Shown here piece by piece: positions 38,792-54,672 of a stretch of 64,000 nucleotides of DNA; the first letter of the stretch is position 1; the number at the start of each line of letters is the position of its first letter. Source of the stretch: Blastocatellia bacterium. Its GTDB lineage: Bacteria; Acidobacteriota; Blastocatellia; UBA7656. The stretch is taken from assembly GCA_035275065.1 (NCBI GenBank), contig DATENM010000150.1:80620-144619 (forward strand). The letters are read 5' to 3'. Both the position numbers and the translations under genes were made by a program. The notes under the pieces were generated by a model. The model made no database searches. It saw only the letters and a program-made list of their open reading frames with translations, and was not told where the DNA came from.

Positions 38792-41700
38792 ATGAGCAAT
38801 ATCTTAATGGTTCCCATCCACGTGGACGCGCTGTTTCTCAGCCTGGACCAGCCGGTCGTCGAAGCGATGGCGGATTTCTCCCGGCTACCTTATTCAGATG
38901 GAACGCGCGAGTGGAATCCTGACATTGCCTATATCAGTGAAGACATCGTCTCCAAGCCCTTTCAAAATGATAACCTGCTCTTGAAAGCGGGCCTCCATCT
39001 GCATTGGGCCTTGCCCGACGCGTTGACGAAAGGCGCTCAAACAGCAGATGGGACAAGCTTTCCGGCGGTGCCGAATCGCTGGCTGGTTATGCGCAGTAAC
39101 CTGGACGAGAGCGGTCAACGGACGGTAGACAAACAATGGATCGTCGAGAGCGACTATCTTTATCCTGAAAGTGCTGGGGATGAAACGGCTGGCGTCAGCA
39201 TCGGTAACCTGACCAACCTGACAAACGGCGCACCCCCCAGGCCCTTTCGCTACCTGGGCCGAAAGATGTCTTTAACGGCGTGGCCGGCGGGGAGCGCGCA
39301 AGCCGACTTTGTCCTGACCGCCGTCGGGTATGGAGAACCTGCCTTCGCGGCTTTTTATCCGAATTGCCACAGCGTCTTCGGTCTATACGACGATGCGTAC
39401 TCGGACGCCCTCCCTCCGGGTCTGCAATATGATGTCGTCGGCTGGTACGCCGATGAGGGCCGGGATTATCTCGAAACATTTATCCGTGAGGTGACTGGCG
39501 ATTATCAAGAGCAGGGTCAAGCGCCGCCTGGCGACGACGACTTACAAACCGCCCTGGAAGAGCAAGCCCAATGGACGTATGAGACCAGTGGTAACCAGAC
39601 GTTCCCGGCTCGCATGCTCTGCTACACGCGATTGACCTTCAACCCGAACCCTGAATCCATCGACAATCCTGATAAAGCAGACCCCAATACCCGCATCACG
39701 GTGGCAAACACCGGCACAGAAGCCCTCTCGGCTTACCTGGCCGATAGGATTGTTCGCAGCCAGATGCCCGATCCCTCAACCGTAGGAATCGACAGGGAGA
39801 AAAAGTCGGAGGTCGAAGATCAACTGGAAGCCGTTCAATTTTCAGATTGGCTCGACACGCATCAGTTAGACATCGGCGCAAAATTTGTAGAGGCCCGTCA
39901 CGAGAAAGGCTTTACCGCCACGGGCGACGACACCCTCTGGACAGTCACACAGGAATCTCAGGACACCGAAGCCGATGCGGCGCGGGGCGACGCGCAGGCG
40001 CAGATCACCTTGCCCCAAGACATGGCGCATCAGCTCAACACGCTCAACCAGCGCCAAAAGACGTATGACCGCGCCCGGCAAGAGATCGAGTCTCTGCGCC
40101 AGCAGCTGTTTGCCGATTGGTACAAGTATATGCTCTGCGCTTACCCGCCCGAAGACTCGCAGGACGATTATCCGGATATAGATGAAGTGAAGCATTTCAT
40201 CGAAGTCAAAAGCATTGCTCCCTTGCAGAGCAAGCTGGCTGCCACAGGGGCGCTCTCCTTAGCGACCGAGAACGGACAAATCATTGCCTCCATCGCTGAC
40301 TCTTCCGGCGATTCTTTAGCGGCTCAGCTCAAGCAGGCCATAGACGCGCTACAGCAAGCCGTCACGGCCCACAACGGCATTCCCGAGGTGCAGGCGGCCC
40401 ACATGACCTACAAGCTCAAGCCGGTAGCGGGTGCGCGGTACTGGCAGCCGAACGAGCCGGTGGTGCTCTTGACGGGGCAGGCCGTGAAGCCCACTCCCAG
40501 ATATGGCAGGGATGGCTCTCCGCAAGATGACGGCTTGCTGGAGTGTGCGCTCTTAGTTGGACAAGAGATAGAGGACTTGCTGCCATATCACGGCGAGCGG
40601 GTCGCGGCCGCCATGGATAGCCTCGCAGCCGCCGCGAATGAGGAGAAGGTCGGCTTCAAGCTCTGGACGCAACAGCCCTGGAATCCCTTCTTGCTGGAAT
40701 GGGAGGCGGAGCTATTGCCCACCGAAATCGGCAACAATCTCGACCCTGAGACGGGAAGCTACGCGCATAGCTTCATCAAAGACAATTTCACTCTGGCGGT
40801 CAATGACGTTGACCTCTCGGTCACGCCGGGAAAGGGGGCCGTGGCGAAGGCCGCTAACGTCTACACCGGATCAAGCCTTCTGACCGCCCATGCCAGCGAG
40901 TTGTTGACCGAAGACCTGGGAAATTATCTGCAACAACAACTGCTCGGCGAATACTACGAGCAGCAGCAGGTCCCGCCCGCCGAGCAGACCGAGAATTACT
41001 TCAATGAGAACACGGCGACGATTCTTGATTGGTATAAACAGACCCATTGCAGCCAGGACTCCGACACCTCTACCTGTCACCTGATACAGGCCTATGAGAT
41101 GCTCACCGACCCGAGCTTCTACAGCCTGTCGCAATCGCTCGGCGGCTTTAACGAAGCCTTACTGATGCACAAGCAGACGCTGCAATTGGCCATCGCGGAT
41201 CCCCTGGGATTTGACGACTATCAAGCCTTCGCCGCCAGCGTGAGCGATGCCGTTGCGGGCAGCATCAAAAGCGCGCCGGAGCCGCTCAATGACTTCAACC
41301 CGATTCGCTCGGGGGCGTTGAAGCTGACGCGCCTGCGACTGGTGGATTCCTTCGGGCAGATCAAAGAGCTGGATTGCACGAGCGTCATCACCACGGAGAA
41401 GATGACGCTGCCGCAGAATCCTTATCTGATGATTTTGCCGCCGCGCCTGGCGCAGCCGGCTCGCCTCAACTTGCGCTGGCTCTCTGCGGCTCAAGATGAG
41501 CAGGAGATGAACGACCATCCGGCCACGACGCCGATCTGCGGATGGGTTTTGCCCAATAATCTGGACAGCAGTCTAATGATTTATGATGGCGACGGAAAAG
41601 CGCTCGGGTCAATCAATCGTAACGCCCAATGGGAGCCCACGCCCGCCAGCCCCTCTCCGGCGCAGCCCTCCGACATCAGCAATTCTCACCTGAACAAAAT

Positions 41701-52737: not shown

Positions 52738-54672
52738 ATGACTGACGATAATCCCACTGATGGCGCTACGACTTCTTCCGGCAAGGTTGAGTTCATCCAA
52801 TATCACAAGCCTGGGCTCATCGCCGGCGACTATGAAATCTCCGTCACTCAAAAAGTGGCGACAATCGCCGACGGGAAAATTCCCCCGGAGAGTTTTCCGG
52901 CCAGCCGGGGCTTCGTTGTCCTCGGAGAACGTTTCGAGTTAAAACCGGAAGACATCTATGCGCTGTTTCCGCCCGAAGGCAGTGTGGGCGATCATTCCAA
53001 CGCCTTGCCGCATCTCGTCCTCAATCGCAGCACGCTACCCTGGGAGCGCAGGGCGAATCCGGCTTCCGACCTTGCCCCGTGGCTGGCGCTACTGCTTTTC
53101 GATCAGCTGGAAGCGCCGACGCCACAAGTGATCACCTTGGGCGAGTTAAAAAACGGCTCCGATTCGACCATCAAGTTCCCGGGCTTCTCCTTCGAGTACG
53201 AGCAGAGCGAACAAGACAAGGTGACGGTCATTGATGTCCAGAAGAGTTTGCTGCAAACCTTGTTGCCTGCGGAAGAAGAGTTGGAGCTGTTGGCCCATGT
53301 GCGTCAGGGAAAAGATACGCAGGGGGATCAAACCGTTGGCGAGACCGCGGTGATAATCGGGAACAGGCTTCCGCGCAGGGGCGCAATCAGCGTCGCTCAT
53401 CTGGTGTCCGTCGAGGAGCGTTATACCGGCGGTGGTTTCGATTATCAACAGGCGCTGGATGATGACCGGATTCGCCTGGTGAGCTTGAAGAGTTGGAGCT
53501 TCGCCTGTGCGGATGAAGCGCACAATTTTAAATCCCTCCTCACCCATCTCAATCTCCAGCCCGGCACGTTACGACTGCCAGCCGGCCCATCTCCTGAGGC
53601 GGAAAAATACCTCTCTATGGGCTACGTGCCCCTGACCCATTATTTACGGCGGGGCGCGCAAACGGTCTCCTGGTATCACGGGCCTTTAAGTCCGGCAGGG
53701 AACCCGCTTGAGATTTCCCTCCCGGCACCGGCGGCCGATCAACTGGTGCGCTACGACCCGTCGAGCGGCCTCTTCGACATCTCCTACGCGGCAGCCTGGG
53801 AACTGGGACGTTTACTGGCCCTGCAAAGTAAGCAATTCTCCGTCAGCCTCTACAATTGGAAACGGGCGCACGCGCAACATCTGGGATATGATGAGCAACG
53901 CCTGCTTCATCCGCATTTGCCGATGTACGAGCAGACGACCGGGGGCGAGGAAGAACAGATACCCGCGGATATCTCCTCATGGTTTTACAACCTCAGCCTG
54001 TTACAGGGCGTCCCCTTCAATTACCTTGTGCCCGACGAGCGAATGTTGCCGCCTGAATCGCTTCGCTTTTTCCTGATGGACAACCCTTGGATTGATTGTC
54101 TGCTGGACGGCGCCTTCAGTATCGGCAGGGTGACAACGTCAGATTATGAGCAAGACCAGTCTCAAGCAGACAGCCCGGCTGCGAACCCGCATGACCAGCT
54201 TAGCGGCTTCTTGCTGCGCTCGGAGGTAGTGGCGGGTTGGCCCGGATTATTAGTGGATGCTTATGCCGACCTCGATAAAGCAACGAAGCTTGACAGTCTT
54301 CGCATGGAACGTCTTTCAGATAATGTCCTTATCTGTCTGTTTGCGGGGGAAGCGCAAGTGGTAGAGATTCATCAACAACCGGAAGCCTTACATTTCGGAC
54401 TGGACGAGACGGAGGCTTCTCCGCCAACCTATTACAAAAAGCTACGAGACAGTGCAGGAAAGGAGGGCAATCTGCGCGTTGACTCCATCCCCTGGCGGCA
54501 GGAATCCGCCAGGGTGATCAATATCGCCGCTCTAGCCGATGCCATCGTGGACAGTTTGGATGACCCCACTCGAAGTAAAATGAACCTCCCGCCCATCACT
54601 TCCTCGCAGTATGCTTTACAGATGATCGAGGGCGTGGAAAAGATCTCTTTTTCAAAAGCAAACAGCGAATGA
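52738..54672 (+). CDS. hypothetical protein (644 aa), no recognised domain
   Basis: Starts 27 nt after the previous stop. No signal peptide. Conserved-looking blocks are LPHLVLNRSTLPWERR, APWLALLLFD and LLQGVPFNYLVPDERMLPPESLRFFLMDNPWIDCLLDGAFSIGR. Confidence 0.8.
   Translation: MTDDNPTDGATTSSGKVEFIQYHKPGLIAGDYEISVTQKVATIADGKIPPESFPASRGFVVLGERFELKPEDIYALFPPEGSVGDHSNALPHLVLNRSTLPWERRANPASDLAPWLALLLFDQLEAPTPQVITLGELKNGSDSTIKFPGFSFEYEQSEQDKVTVIDVQKSLLQTLLPAEEELELLAHVRQGKDTQGDQTVGETAVIIGNRLPRRGAISVAHLVSVEERYTGGGFDYQQALDDDRIRLVSLKSWSFACADEAHNFKSLLTHLNLQPGTLRLPAGPSPEAEKYLSMGYVPLTHYLRRGAQTVSWYHGPLSPAGNPLEISLPAPAADQLVRYDPSSGLFDISYAAAWELGRLLALQSKQFSVSLYNWKRAHAQHLGYDEQRLLHPHLPMYEQTTGGEEEQIPADISSWFYNLSLLQGVPFNYLVPDERMLPPESLRFFLMDNPWIDCLLDGAFSIGRVTTSDYEQDQSQADSPAANPHDQLSGFLLRSEVVAGWPGLLVDAYADLDKATKLDSLRMERLSDNVLICLFAGEAQVVEIHQQPEALHFGLDETEASPPTYYKKLRDSAGKEGNLRVDSIPWRQESARVINIAALADAIVDSLDDPTRSKMNLPPITSSQYALQMIEGVEKISFSKANSE

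Follow-up and report, generated by a model that had tools for sequence, protein, structure and literature searches.

A widespread and undescribed gene module combining conserved giant proteins, a fibre-like lectin and an exchangeable enzyme gene

A six-gene operon in a 64,000-nucleotide stretch of DNA from a Blastocatellia bacterium (hereafter, the window) belongs to a module that occurs in eight or more bacterial phyla and, in part, in fungi, yet has never been described: its first and last products (g1 and g6) represent families without a named member, and the literature we searched does not mention them. Because it joins three giant conserved proteins to a fibre-like lectin protein and a swappable enzyme gene, the module looks like a new effector-carrying machine. 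We tentatively favour reading the operon as one copy of a self-contained, mobile module for a novel effector-carrying complex, most likely acting on other cells; this last point we hold with the same reserve as the whole.

Layout of the operon

The operon and its neighbouring signals comprise the following features:

38792-54672, + strand, six-gene operon, all genes co-directional (ORF analysis)
38604-38631, + strand, promoter-like site, TTGAAA-16 nt-TG-GATAAT, 10/12 consensus matches with extended -10 TG, within the 565-nt region 5' of g1
38792-42727, + strand, g1, 1311-aa conserved protein of the putative chassis, without known domain or PDB fold match
42750-42929, + strand, g2, 59-aa putative accessory protein, its stop overlapping the g3 start (ATGA)
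42926-46264, + strand, g3, 1112-aa lectin/fibre protein with LamG, Ig-like core, GIGTT fibre and C-terminal cap
43088-43570, + strand, g3 LamG domain (Laminin_G_3, residues 55-215, 2e-24 in Pfam)
~43574-45145, + strand, g3 conserved core of three Ig-like repeats, aa ~216-740 (cross-locus comparison)
~45174-46264, + strand, g3 variable GIGTT fibre and C-terminal cap, aa ~750-1112
46338-48260, + strand, g4, putative payload slot, 640-aa ComEC-type MBL-fold hydrolase with a poly-Asn insert and a C-terminal half of no known type
48301-52710, + strand, g5, 1469-aa DUF6603 protein of the putative chassis, with variable N-terminus and conserved remainder
48301-49650, + strand, g5 variable N-terminal ~450 aa, putative payload dock
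49651-52710, + strand, g5 conserved part
50608-52032, + strand, g5 DUF6603 domain (residues 770-1244, 1e-147 in Pfam)
52738-54672, + strand, g6, 644-aa protein of the putative chassis, the most conserved component, without known domain or PDB/BFVD fold match
54807-54823, + strand, terminator-like hairpin, 135 nt 3' of the g6 stop (consensus scan)

ORF coordinates reproduce the gene sizes and spacings given in the first-pass annotation, with gaps of 22, -4 (the ATGA overlap), 73, 40 and 27 nt and 565 nt upstream of g1. The mechanical g4 ORF (46332-48260, 642 aa) opens with TTG; because orthologues align from residue 3, the start is probably the ATG at 46338, which yields the 73-nt gap. One source's gene call places the g5 start later, leaving 1290 aa. 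Composition is intermediate, as had been noted, with a GC content of 0.56-0.58 in the operon versus 0.62-0.63 in the flanks and 0.476 in g4 alone. Pfam and motif scans of the six products likewise found no Walker A motif, signal peptide or RHS, nor any convincing transmembrane (TM) segment (maximum KD19 1.68), and all the parts that the annotation could name are present, namely LamG, a GIGTT phage-like fibre, an HxHxDH/HHGS MBL fold and DUF6603. Its placing of the first hairpin behind the last gene was not supported: our consensus scan returned 20 terminator-like sites inside the operon against 19.1 expected. With terminator-like sites no commoner here than chance predicts, the hairpin at 54807-54823 is weak evidence. 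Promoter-like sites (11 found against 7.0 +/- 3.4 expected) are also within chance, and the one at 38604-38631 is a consensus match only.

Conserved and variable components

The giant proteins were first described as orphans, but g1 and g6 represent large, unnamed families. We found more than 1,133 homologues of g1, every one annotated as hypothetical, and its cross-phylum alignment displays ~54% identity with numerous invariant Trp, Pro, Gly and Arg residues; the final ~100 aa vary between loci. For g6 there are at least 2,310 matches at 90% clustering and 5,296 clusters at 50% identity, with ~55% identity across phyla and 88 invariant columns, many of them His, Glu, Asp or Arg. Neither protein has an assignment in Pfam, NCBIfam, PHROGs or PADLOC, and the same is true of g5 beyond DUF6603; PDB profile searches with all three gave zero matches at E <= 10, and sequence searches of the PDB likewise assigned none of them. 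AF2 models were obtained for g6 (pLDDT 77.5, pTM 0.70) and for P0087, a g1 orthologue (pLDDT 76, pTM 0.69). Foldseek returned no significant match for the g1 model in the PDB (best E-value 0.39) or for the g6 model (best E 0.03 in the PDB, and 0.008 with a TM of 0.08 in BFVD). Being so highly conserved (~55% across phyla, with many invariant His, Asp, Glu and Arg residues), g1 and g6 might also be enzymes and not a passive scaffold.

In g3, the core is conserved and the distal end, of phage-fibre type, is shuffled. Conservation between loci is restricted to aa ~200-700. The protein has three GIGTT repeats and matches PHROGs for a tail fibre (residues 643-846) and for a C-terminal domain common to phage proteins (970-1109). 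Among 41 orthologues, we identified LamG in 18, Peptidase_S74 in 11, phage Collar in 5, Gp10_C in 4 and Pentaxin in 2; CBM-like modules were also seen. The small g2 protein, with the conserved motif LxLxExNxILxALGxxPYxxVxQLIxKIQxQ, turns up in only some loci, from several phyla, and is missing where g1 and g3 are 11-150 nt apart; it may act as a small accessory factor, translationally coupled to g3.

Could a known machine (for example a prophage tail or tailocin, eCIS, Tc toxin or T6SS-related element) be present here in degenerate or highly divergent form, so that the novelty of the operon is merely apparent? This would account for the phage-like fibre of g3 and for its weak match to DUF2345 (VgrG C-terminal; E 0.0047). 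However, Pfam, NCBIfam and PHROGs gave no sheath, tube, baseplate, portal, terminase, TcA, TcB or RHS signature, the PDB profile and Foldseek searches above are equally negative, a tblastn search with g6 against 50,697 phage records found no match, and the flanks are housekeeping genes. We regard this explanation as very improbable.

Slot 4 is an exchangeable enzyme gene, occupied in this operon by an MBL hydrolase. Fourteen of the 33 slot-4 proteins contain Lactamase_B, three EEP, two Peptidase_S8, one Lipase_3 and one an LCAT/PGAP1-like hydrolase; further types are a Bd3614/MafB19-type deaminase, a methyltransferase-TPR-GNAT protein and several proteins of no known family. In g4, the HYHKDH and SHHGS motifs occur at residues 70 and 295; the Lactamase_B match (2.9e-4) scores 21.3 bits against a gathering threshold of 22.7, with orthologues reaching 2e-11, and the N-terminal 80 aa match the PADLOC model named LmuA (3e-10). 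The g4 hydrolase is probably a nuclease or phosphodiesterase. No immunity-like gene lies beside this payload candidate in the window. Compared with a close relative (65% identity in g1, 63% in g6), a single contiguous block of unrelated sequence stretches from the g3 C-terminus through g4 into the g5 N-terminus. The GC content of g4 is deviant as well.

The g5 protein carries DUF6603 in all 34 orthologues scanned, and its residues 1-400 are not conserved between loci. The presence of this N-terminus correlates with that of slot 4: g5 has just ~900-1130 aa in about ten loci lacking a slot-4 gene of at least 200 aa, versus 1238-1803 aa in about 30 loci that have one, with L074 as the sole exception. 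The correlation is partly phylogenetic, since most short-g5 loci are cyanobacterial. In Fusarium musae, an MBL-like N-terminus is fused to DUF6603 (residues 1665-2184 of P0255), and this protein was the only match among 255 to an HMM built from slot-4 MBLs (E 2.7e-9).

Distribution and possible site of action

The order g1-(g2)-g3-slot 4-g5-g6 recurs in Cyanobacteria, Acidobacteriota, Chloroflexota, Verrucomicrobiota, Bacteroidota, Gemmatimonadota, KSB1 and Actinomycetota, and is kept in most of the 80 genome loci from these eight phyla; we also found it in Reticulibacter, in Kouleothrix, in one Anaerolineae genome and on one further 3.6-Mb contig. Two MAGs have two loci each (L016 and L028; L054 and L057). 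In two ascomycete fungi, g1, g5 and g6 are clustered without g3. These three genes are the deep core of the module. The first-pass annotation had proposed an undescribed multi-gene system, unless the genes lacked synteny elsewhere or the large proteins fell to a known machine. The proposal is supported: gene order recurs across phyla, and domain, profile and PDB searches, with Foldseek for g1 and g6, assigned the large proteins to no such machine. The three functions that the annotation listed (particle or fibre assembly, toxin delivery, and defence with a nuclease effector) are still live candidates, and they are weighed below.

No flanking gene is conserved, which makes the module a self-contained block; we propose that it is horizontally mobile. 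The GMC oxidoreductase upstream and the FG-GAP/PPC surface protein downstream lie outside it. Among the 148 ORFs that most closely flank 72 loci, housekeeping genes predominate, and defence, phage or transposase genes are not enriched.

In the effector-carrying complex that we favour, g1, g6 and the C-terminal ~1000 aa of g5 would form a chassis. The Ig-like repeats of g3 would anchor a targeting fibre to it, built like a phage tail fibre, whose distal end (here LamG, the beta-helical GIGTT fibre and the C-terminal cap) would bind the target, for which a surface glycan is the most likely candidate. Docking of the g4 payload would fall to the variable ~450-aa N-terminus of g5. Since no component has a signal peptide, assembly would take place in the cytoplasm. 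The complex would then be released by a route outside the module and deliver its payload into other cells, as a functional analogue of eCIS or Tc toxins made of unrelated parts. Release is entirely conjectural: the components carry neither signal peptides nor TM segments, and we found no gene for secretion, lysis or an ATPase linked to the module. Our leaning towards an extracellular role comes from the LamG, pentraxin, CBM-like, Collar, Gp10_C and S74 modules of g3 orthologues, typical of receptor-binding proteins, from a PG_binding_1 domain inserted in some g1 homologues, and from the mostly housekeeping flanks and the payload's lack of an immunity-like neighbour.

Alternatively, the module may work inside its own cell as a conflict system, serving abortive infection against phages or regulated cell death; here g3 would be a cytoplasmic sensor of invader structures, and g1, g5 and g6 would hold g4 inactive until sensing frees it to attack the cell's own DNA, membrane or proteins. 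We consider this less likely, though a serious possibility. The lack of signal peptides and TM segments in the bacterial components speaks for it, and the fungal g1, g5 and g6 homologues, which have no signal peptides, TM segments or g3, argue for a cytosolic role, at least in fungi. Hosts are biased towards multicellular or filamentous bacteria and filamentous fungi, as reported for conflict and cell-death systems (PMC7159879), and the effectors (MBL, EEP, protease, lipase, deaminase) come without immunity genes, g4 having the LmuA-like N-terminus. CHAT-SAVED and TPR-CHAT genes lie 9-14 kb upstream of the operon in the window, and CATRA and CHAT genes adjoin the module in a Streptomyces plasmid relative; these conflict genes count against the extracellular reading. 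In Paenibacillus, a copy on a plasmid is surrounded by helicase, PLD-like and transposase genes. There are precedents both for intracellular lectin-fold sensors derived from phage tail fibres (PMC7159879, PMC10907252) and for cytoplasmic contractile injection systems causing cell death in Streptomyces (PMC10066040). Nevertheless, none of g1, g3, g5 and g6 matches PADLOC, the NTPase, STAND, SMC or helicase sensors that define described conflict systems are missing, neighbours are not defence islands, and PG_binding_1 and the glycan-binding and fibre modules with their S74 chaperone suggest cell-surface targets.

Those same g3 and g1 domains, the many filamentous, gliding or colony-forming hosts and the surface protein downstream in the window would also be consistent with an assembly that has a structural or adhesive role, for instance as a surface fibre, a sheath or a means of cell-cell attachment, and no toxin function, its slot-4 enzyme serving maturation or matrix remodelling. 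This seems improbable: export signals were not found, the surface protein is not conserved with the module, the fungal triad has no fibre, and a maturation enzyme would not be swapped for a deaminase, lipase, subtilase, EEP or GNAT, or be lost.

Comparison with known systems

Like extracellular contractile injection systems (Afp, PVC, MAC, and the cytoplasmic CIS of Streptomyces), the module is a multi-gene, horizontally mobile operon, found in the same phyla, with a phage-tail-fibre-like targeting protein whose distal domains are exchangeable, payload genes of varying enzymatic type, and a lack of signal peptides and, as a rule, of immunity genes; some CIS work within their producer, leading to cell death (PMC10066040). 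Unlike them, it has no sheath, tube, baseplate (gp25/gp27/gp6-like), tape measure or AAA+ ATPase, its three core proteins have no sequence match to CIS components, nor the g1 and g6 models a fold match, and its core reaches fungi.

Tc (ABC) toxin complexes resemble the module in having a small number of giant subunits that lack signal peptides and bear an enzyme payload, and in their lectin or receptor-binding domains; fungi, too, are known to have Tc-like genes. However, the module lacks the VRP1/TcA pore, SpvB/TcdB mid-domains and RHS repeats, and its payload is a separate gene, or an N-terminal DUF6603 fusion in Fusarium, whereas that of Tc is the C-terminus of the RHS cocoon protein.

Polymorphic toxin systems (CDI, Rhs, MafB and LXG among others; PMC3482391) swap their enzymatic toxin domains in a comparable, cassette-like way, with Bd3614/MafB19-type deaminase, lipase and nuclease-like folds among them. 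The module effectors, in contrast, are stand-alone genes and not C-terminal tips of a trafficking protein, without adjacent immunity genes or recognised secretion or trafficking domains. With Lamassu LmuA variants and the NTP-dependent conflict systems of multicellular prokaryotes (PMC7159879), the module shares a variable effector slot, an MBL-type hydrolase resembling the LmuA model, a host bias towards multicellular bacteria and fungi, and CHAT systems nearby in two loci. It differs in having no SMC/LmuB, STAND, vWA-MoxR or GTPase core, no PADLOC match for g1, g3, g5 and g6, and no general association with defence islands.

Finally, g5 and all orthologues scanned are clear members of DUF6603 (PF20248), a family without assigned function, on which we found no paper in the literature searched. 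The operon context, the link to a payload gene and the fungal triad are apparently new information on this family.

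The operon and its surroundings

The six-gene operon proposed in the first-pass annotation exists, is conserved and, to the extent that the tools used can tell, has no earlier description. Scanning for open reading frames (ORFs) recovered all six genes on the plus strand, together with the reported gaps of 22, -4, 73, 40 and 27 nt and a leader of 565 nt:

38604-38631, plus strand: promoter-like site, consensus match upstream of g1
38792-42727, plus strand: g1, 1311 aa
42750-42929, plus strand: g2, 59 aa
42926-46264, plus strand: g3, 1112 aa
46332/46338-48260, plus strand: g4, 642/640 aa
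48301-52710, plus strand: g5, 1469 aa
52738-54672, plus strand: g6, 644 aa

We place the start of g4 at ATG 46338, because the 73-nt gap implies it and the alignment of orthologues begins there. One public source shortens the g5 product to 1290 aa (protein P0241, 88% of the ORF), with an implied start about 180 codons downstream; we favour ATG 48301 as the probable start, since orthologues measure 1430-1530 aa and the resulting gap is 40 nt. The first hairpin had been said to appear only after the last gene, which a consensus scan does not bear out: it places terminator-like sites within the operon, at chance frequency. No Rfam family was matched in the window between 36 and 56 kb. The distinct composition of the operon was borne out, with a GC content of 0.56-0.58 versus 0.62-0.63 in flanking genes, and 0.476 in g4 alone. 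All six products are acidic and, as first described, none has a Walker A motif, a signal-peptide-like N terminus or a convincing transmembrane (TM) helix.

The GMC oxidoreductase and the huge surface protein described on either side are indeed the flanks, but neither belongs to the conserved block. Several other genes of the window deserve mention:

24130-25545 and 26576-30097, plus strand: CHAT+SAVED and TPR+CHAT genes, in a low-GC island
54980-59374, downstream of the operon: FG-GAP/PPC/BACON-like protein, 1464 aa
60333-61469, plus strand, downstream: PP2C/SpoIIE-type phosphatase gene
61479-63185, minus strand, downstream: PEGA-domain protein gene

The FG-GAP/PPC/BACON-like protein carries a TM anchor at its N terminus (KD19 2.34) and is matched in a single locus out of 85, and there only partially. 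The phosphatase and PEGA-domain genes (60333-63185) have no link to the module. The low-GC island extends over 22000-32000 (GC 0.47-0.52 versus 0.62 nearby), and its two CHAT genes, which precede the operon by 9-14 kb, are of the conflict/defence type (SAVED, 1e-26, in the first product; CHAT, 6e-74, in the second, of 1173 aa). Several small ORFs next to them have no Pfam match.

A conserved core in bacteria and ascomycetes

The large proteins had been called orphans, a label that does not suit g1 and g6, both members of large families. There are more than 1,133 homologues of g1; g6 has at least 2,310 at 90% clustering and 5,296 clusters at 50% identity. Wherever a source names these homologues, it is as 'hypothetical protein'. 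A word-indexed search returned at least 15 homologues of g5 among the matches listed, which we do not read as rarity because tblastn detects g5 in 69 of 83 compared loci.

Absence of synteny, which the first-pass annotation had named as an argument against its own proposal, did not occur: the gene order recurs elsewhere. Four large contigs (Reticulibacter, Kouleothrix, an Anaerolineae chromosome and another contig of 3.6 Mb) carry g1, sometimes a gene of about 60 aa, a LamG protein, a gene of about 400-600 aa, a DUF6603 protein and g6, in this order. Profile scanning for g6 in one genome per species confirmed 276 loci, and the 80 examined further belong to Cyanobacteria (Trichodesmium erythraeum IMS101, Microcystis, Moorena and Nostoc included), Acidobacteriota, Chloroflexota, Verrucomicrobiota, Bacteroidota (Saprospiraceae), Gemmatimonadota, KSB1 and Micromonospora. 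The closest g6 relatives come from Blastocatellia and Pyrinomonadaceae. When mapped by tblastn, g6 lies almost everywhere immediately downstream of g5, and the complete order is kept in most loci of sufficient length. Permutations were found as g5-g6-g1-g3 in a Limisphaerales and a Chloroflexota genome (L038 and L084) and as g1-g5-g3-g6 in the Trichodesmium/Moorena/Symploca group (L054, L055, L057 and L058), and one verrucomicrobial locus (L051) has only g6 followed by g1.

Two MAGs hold two loci each, one from Ktedonobacteraceae (L016/L028) and Symploca sp. SIO2C1 (L054/L057). More generally, some genomes contain a g6 homologue at two or three loci, these two MAGs and the one with Embleya plasmid H1 among them. 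Such multiplicity suggests paralogous sets within one genome, possibly equipped with another fibre or payload.

Conservation extends over the full length of g6 and over g1 save its last 100 residues or so, and begins at about residue 450 in g5. The DUF6603 domain named for the C-terminal half of g5 was found by Pfam at residues 770-1244 (1e-147, 493 bits for a cut-off of 27). The deep core consists of g1, the C-terminal part of g5, and g6. Clustering of 533 flank ORFs disclosed no conserved extra gene (lysis cassette, ATPase, immunity or secretion), and the genes closest to the block at 72 loci are of the housekeeping type, not defence islands, in a raw survey that has no genome-wide baseline. 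The block is self-contained and mobile.

The three core proteins have no match in NCBIfam, PHROGs or PADLOC, DUF6603 is their only match in Pfam, and comparison with all PDB sequences (phmmer and profile hmmsearch) returned nothing. AlphaFold2 models were obtained for g6 (pLDDT 77.5, pTM 0.70) and for P0087, a g1 orthologue of 1160 aa (pLDDT 76.4, pTM 0.69). Foldseek found only noise for the g6 model in PDB and BFVD and for the g1 model in PDB (every E-value at least 0.008, query-normalised TM-scores below 0.12), the queries being whole multi-domain models of moderate confidence. Paralogy between g1 and g6 was rejected (hhalign probability 0.2%).

On megaplasmids of actinomycetes and Paenibacillus the copies are distant only (27-35% identity). 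A Streptomyces plasmid carries DUF6603, g6-like and g1-like genes, then two uncharacterised genes, with CATRA and CHAT conflict genes adjoining. The Paenibacillus sonchi plasmid (L086) has a minimal version, a g6-like gene plus a g1-like gene; DUF6603, fibre and payload genes are all missing, and helicase, PLD-like, integrase and transposase genes surround the pair.

DUF6603 proteins are also present in ascomycetes. In Escovopsis weberi (L088) and Fusarium musae (L089), a g1-like, a g5-like and a g6-like gene are clustered, no more than about 25 kb apart, on Mb-scale contigs and amid ordinary fungal genes. No g3 homologue was found at these fungal loci, and no signal peptide in the products of the triad. 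This triad points to inter-kingdom transfer of a multi-gene machine, and it ties the module to the question whether multicellular bacteria and fungi have cell-death and immune machinery in common.

Exchangeable fibre tips and enzymes

The fibre protein g3 contains the LamG domain reported at first (Laminin_G_3, residues 55-215, 2e-24, 86.9 bits for a Pfam cut-off of 27.6), whose nearest PDB sequence match is 4qvs (2.9e-10). The phage-fibre-like tail is there as well, in the form of three GIGTT repeats and PHROG tail-fibre matches, and the C-terminal domain is one that phage proteins also have. Conservation across loci is confined to residues ~200-700, where three Ig-like repeats carry an LxLxITN motif, and the distal end differs from locus to locus. 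Among 41 g3 orthologues, Pfam recognises Laminin_G_3 in 18, the intramolecular chaperone Peptidase_S74 in 11, phage Collar in 5 and, more rarely, T4 Gp10_C (4) and Pentaxin (2). This is the architecture of the fibres with which phages bind their receptors, where the anchor is conserved and the tip is shuffled. The small g2 is restricted to a subset of loci and has a clear conserved motif. At one locus (L034), an ORF of 151 aa that includes a fragment of Peptidase_S74 is found between g3 and the payload gene.

The gene between g3 and g5, which we call slot 4, comes from several families, not one. Pfam identifies an MBL fold in 14 of 33 slot-4 proteins, to which BLAST similarity adds one; three others are EEP proteins and two are subtilases, with a single representative each for class-3 lipases, LCAT/PGAP1-like hydrolases, Bd3614/MafB19-type deaminases and a methyltransferase-TPR-GNAT protein. 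The remainder comprises one family without a name (645-1059 aa, n = 4) and several singletons. An adaptor domain common to all payloads was rejected at the BLAST level, as all-against-all comparison of the 33 proteins gave only within-family similarity. At two cyanobacterial loci, genes for putative restriction endonucleases of the Uma2 family stand between g3 and an EEP payload (L075:2244-2831 and L076:2938-3378). A purely structural or adhesive role for the module appears improbable, since such a role hardly accounts for a payload that changes from one enzyme class to another or is dropped.

In the window, g4 has the expected MBL motifs, HYHKDH and SHHGS. Its Lactamase_B score falls just below the Pfam cut-off (21.3 versus 22.7), and slot proteins of other loci reach 2e-11. 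The protein is most plausibly a ComEC-type MBL hydrolase, putatively a nuclease or phosphodiesterase. Its N-terminal 80 residues match a PADLOC model named LmuA (3e-10); residues ~143-178 form a poly-Asn/Asp low-complexity insert, and the composition as a whole is rich in Asn and Lys. The low GC content of this gene, in an organism of about 0.62, and its Asn-rich product would fit a recent acquisition or exchange of the payload cassette.

Presence of a slot-4 gene tracks a variable N terminus of g5, in a count of loci made without phylogenetic correction. About ten loci, mostly cyanobacterial, have no slot-4 gene of at least 200 aa, and there g5 is short (about 900-1130 aa); in loci with such a gene g5 measures 1238-1803 aa, with L074 as the sole exception. 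When the window is compared with a close relative (65% identity in g1, 63% in g6), the C terminus of g3, g4 and the N terminus of g5 form one contiguous dissimilar block, where similarity is nil or at the level of motifs only.

One fungal protein joins these parts. P0255, a Fusarium DUF6603 protein of 2409 aa, has an MBL-like domain at its N terminus, and is the only one of 255 proteins matched by an HMM built from bacterial slot-4 MBLs (2.7e-9). Its GD, HxxxDH and HHGS motifs occur in the same order along the sequence as they do in g4; BLASTP of this domain against g4 is not significant. Judging from these motifs and the HMM match, P0255 is a Rosetta-stone fusion that ties the payload to DUF6603. 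The fibre, then, combines a conserved anchor with an exchangeable tip, and the enzyme gene is exchangeable and, in one fungus, fused to g5.

Possible mode of action and relation to known systems

We lean towards the view that the operon encodes a new class of macromolecular machine, spread over at least eight bacterial phyla and ascomycetes, with a core of three giant proteins (g1, DUF6603/g5 and g6) that would share neither sequence nor fold with any apparatus known for secretion, injection, intoxication or immunity. The bacterial core would have recruited phage-fibre targeting modules and an exchangeable enzyme, and would aim this toxic enzyme at a recognised target, which could be either a foreign cell or the producing cell. 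The core proteins may assemble into a large complex, a chassis in which the N terminus of g5 would dock or cage the enzyme; the core of g3 would fasten to this chassis while its tip would attach to a glycan or surface of the target, and the enzyme would be the toxic output.

Is the target another cell? We tentatively favour this reading, because the fibre ends in modules well known for receptor binding, because PG_binding_1 is present in some g1 homologues and because the 72 surveyed loci neighbour housekeeping genes, not defence islands. Likewise, eCIS and Tc toxins are not known to have signal peptides or immunity genes, an analogy that may also speak for action on other cells.

The main rival, an intracellular conflict or cell-death device, is a possibility that we hold to be less likely. 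The module encodes nothing for export or release, the fungal triad appears cytosolic, CHAT-type genes occur near the operon in the window and near its Streptomyces relative, and the host range parallels the one described for conflict systems of multicellular bacteria and fungi (PMC7159879). There are also precedents in phage-fibre-derived intracellular sensors and cytoplasmic CIS (PMC7159879, PMC10907252, PMC10066040). However, the NTP-dependent conflict systems of multicellular prokaryotes (Kaur et al. 2020) combine effectors with a central NTPase, whether STAND, MoxR-vWA or GTPase (PMC7159879), and such a core is absent here: the six products contain no NTPase domain or Walker A motif. Furthermore, g1, g3, g5 and g6 match no defence model (in PADLOC 2.0, g2 is also without a match, leaving only the LmuA match of g4), and the raw survey of 72 loci shows no general tie to defence islands.

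A machine of this new class, whichever the target, would be a fourth way to aim a toxic enzyme, the other three being contractile tails, Tc cocoons and polymorphic-toxin filaments. If the module serves for delivery or killing, it would be a new mechanism for microbial warfare or immunity, would give DUF6603 a function and, as a modular chassis with swappable fibre and enzyme, could be engineered as eCIS have been. Its hosts are ecologically important (Trichodesmium, Microcystis, Moorena, Nostoc, soil Acidobacteriota, Chloroflexota, Saprospiraceae and relatives of Streptomyces), and yet the module is nameless, with no literature found and no structural relative for the modelled g1 and g6. Literature searched for DUF6603 and PF20248 makes no mention of them, and concept searches gave analogies only.

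Assignment of the large proteins to a known machine, the other outcome anticipated at the start, was made neither by the profile searches nor by the fold searches with g1 and g6. With contractile systems such as eCIS and phage-tail-like particles, the operon shares a tail-fibre-like targeting protein, g3, according to PHROG families, and g3 orthologues bear S74, Collar and Gp10_C domains. In the six proteins, Pfam, NCBIfam and PHROG searches found no sheath, inner tube or baseplate (gp25/gp27/gp6-like), and the AAA+ ATPase of eCIS has no counterpart, Walker A being absent. For Tc toxins, Pfam gave no match to TcA (VRP1/pore-forming), TcB (SpvB, TcdB mid-domains) or TcC (RHS/YD-repeat cocoon, C-terminal toxin), YD-like motifs number 0-2 per protein, and the Tc fold was found neither by Foldseek with the g1 and g6 models nor by PDB profile searches with g1, g5 and g6. 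That the operon is a divergent form of a known machine is therefore very improbable, as all profile and fold searches speak against it. A phage origin was looked for with g6, which has no tblastn match in 50,697 phage records, and g1, g5 and g6 have no PHROG match; a prophage or phage genome was rejected, with no hallmark match and housekeeping genes as flanks.

In polymorphic toxins, the toxin is the C terminus of a secreted or trafficked protein and an immunity gene is adjacent, whereas slot-4 enzymes are stand-alone genes. The 40-nt gap between g4 and g5 in the window holds no additional ORF, no immunity-like gene adjoins the payload there, and the few additional small ORFs at other loci are Uma2 genes or an S74 fragment. 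Although its core parts belong to none of these systems, the module resembles eCIS, Tc and polymorphic-toxin systems in its logic of a chassis, a targeting fibre and an exchangeable enzyme.
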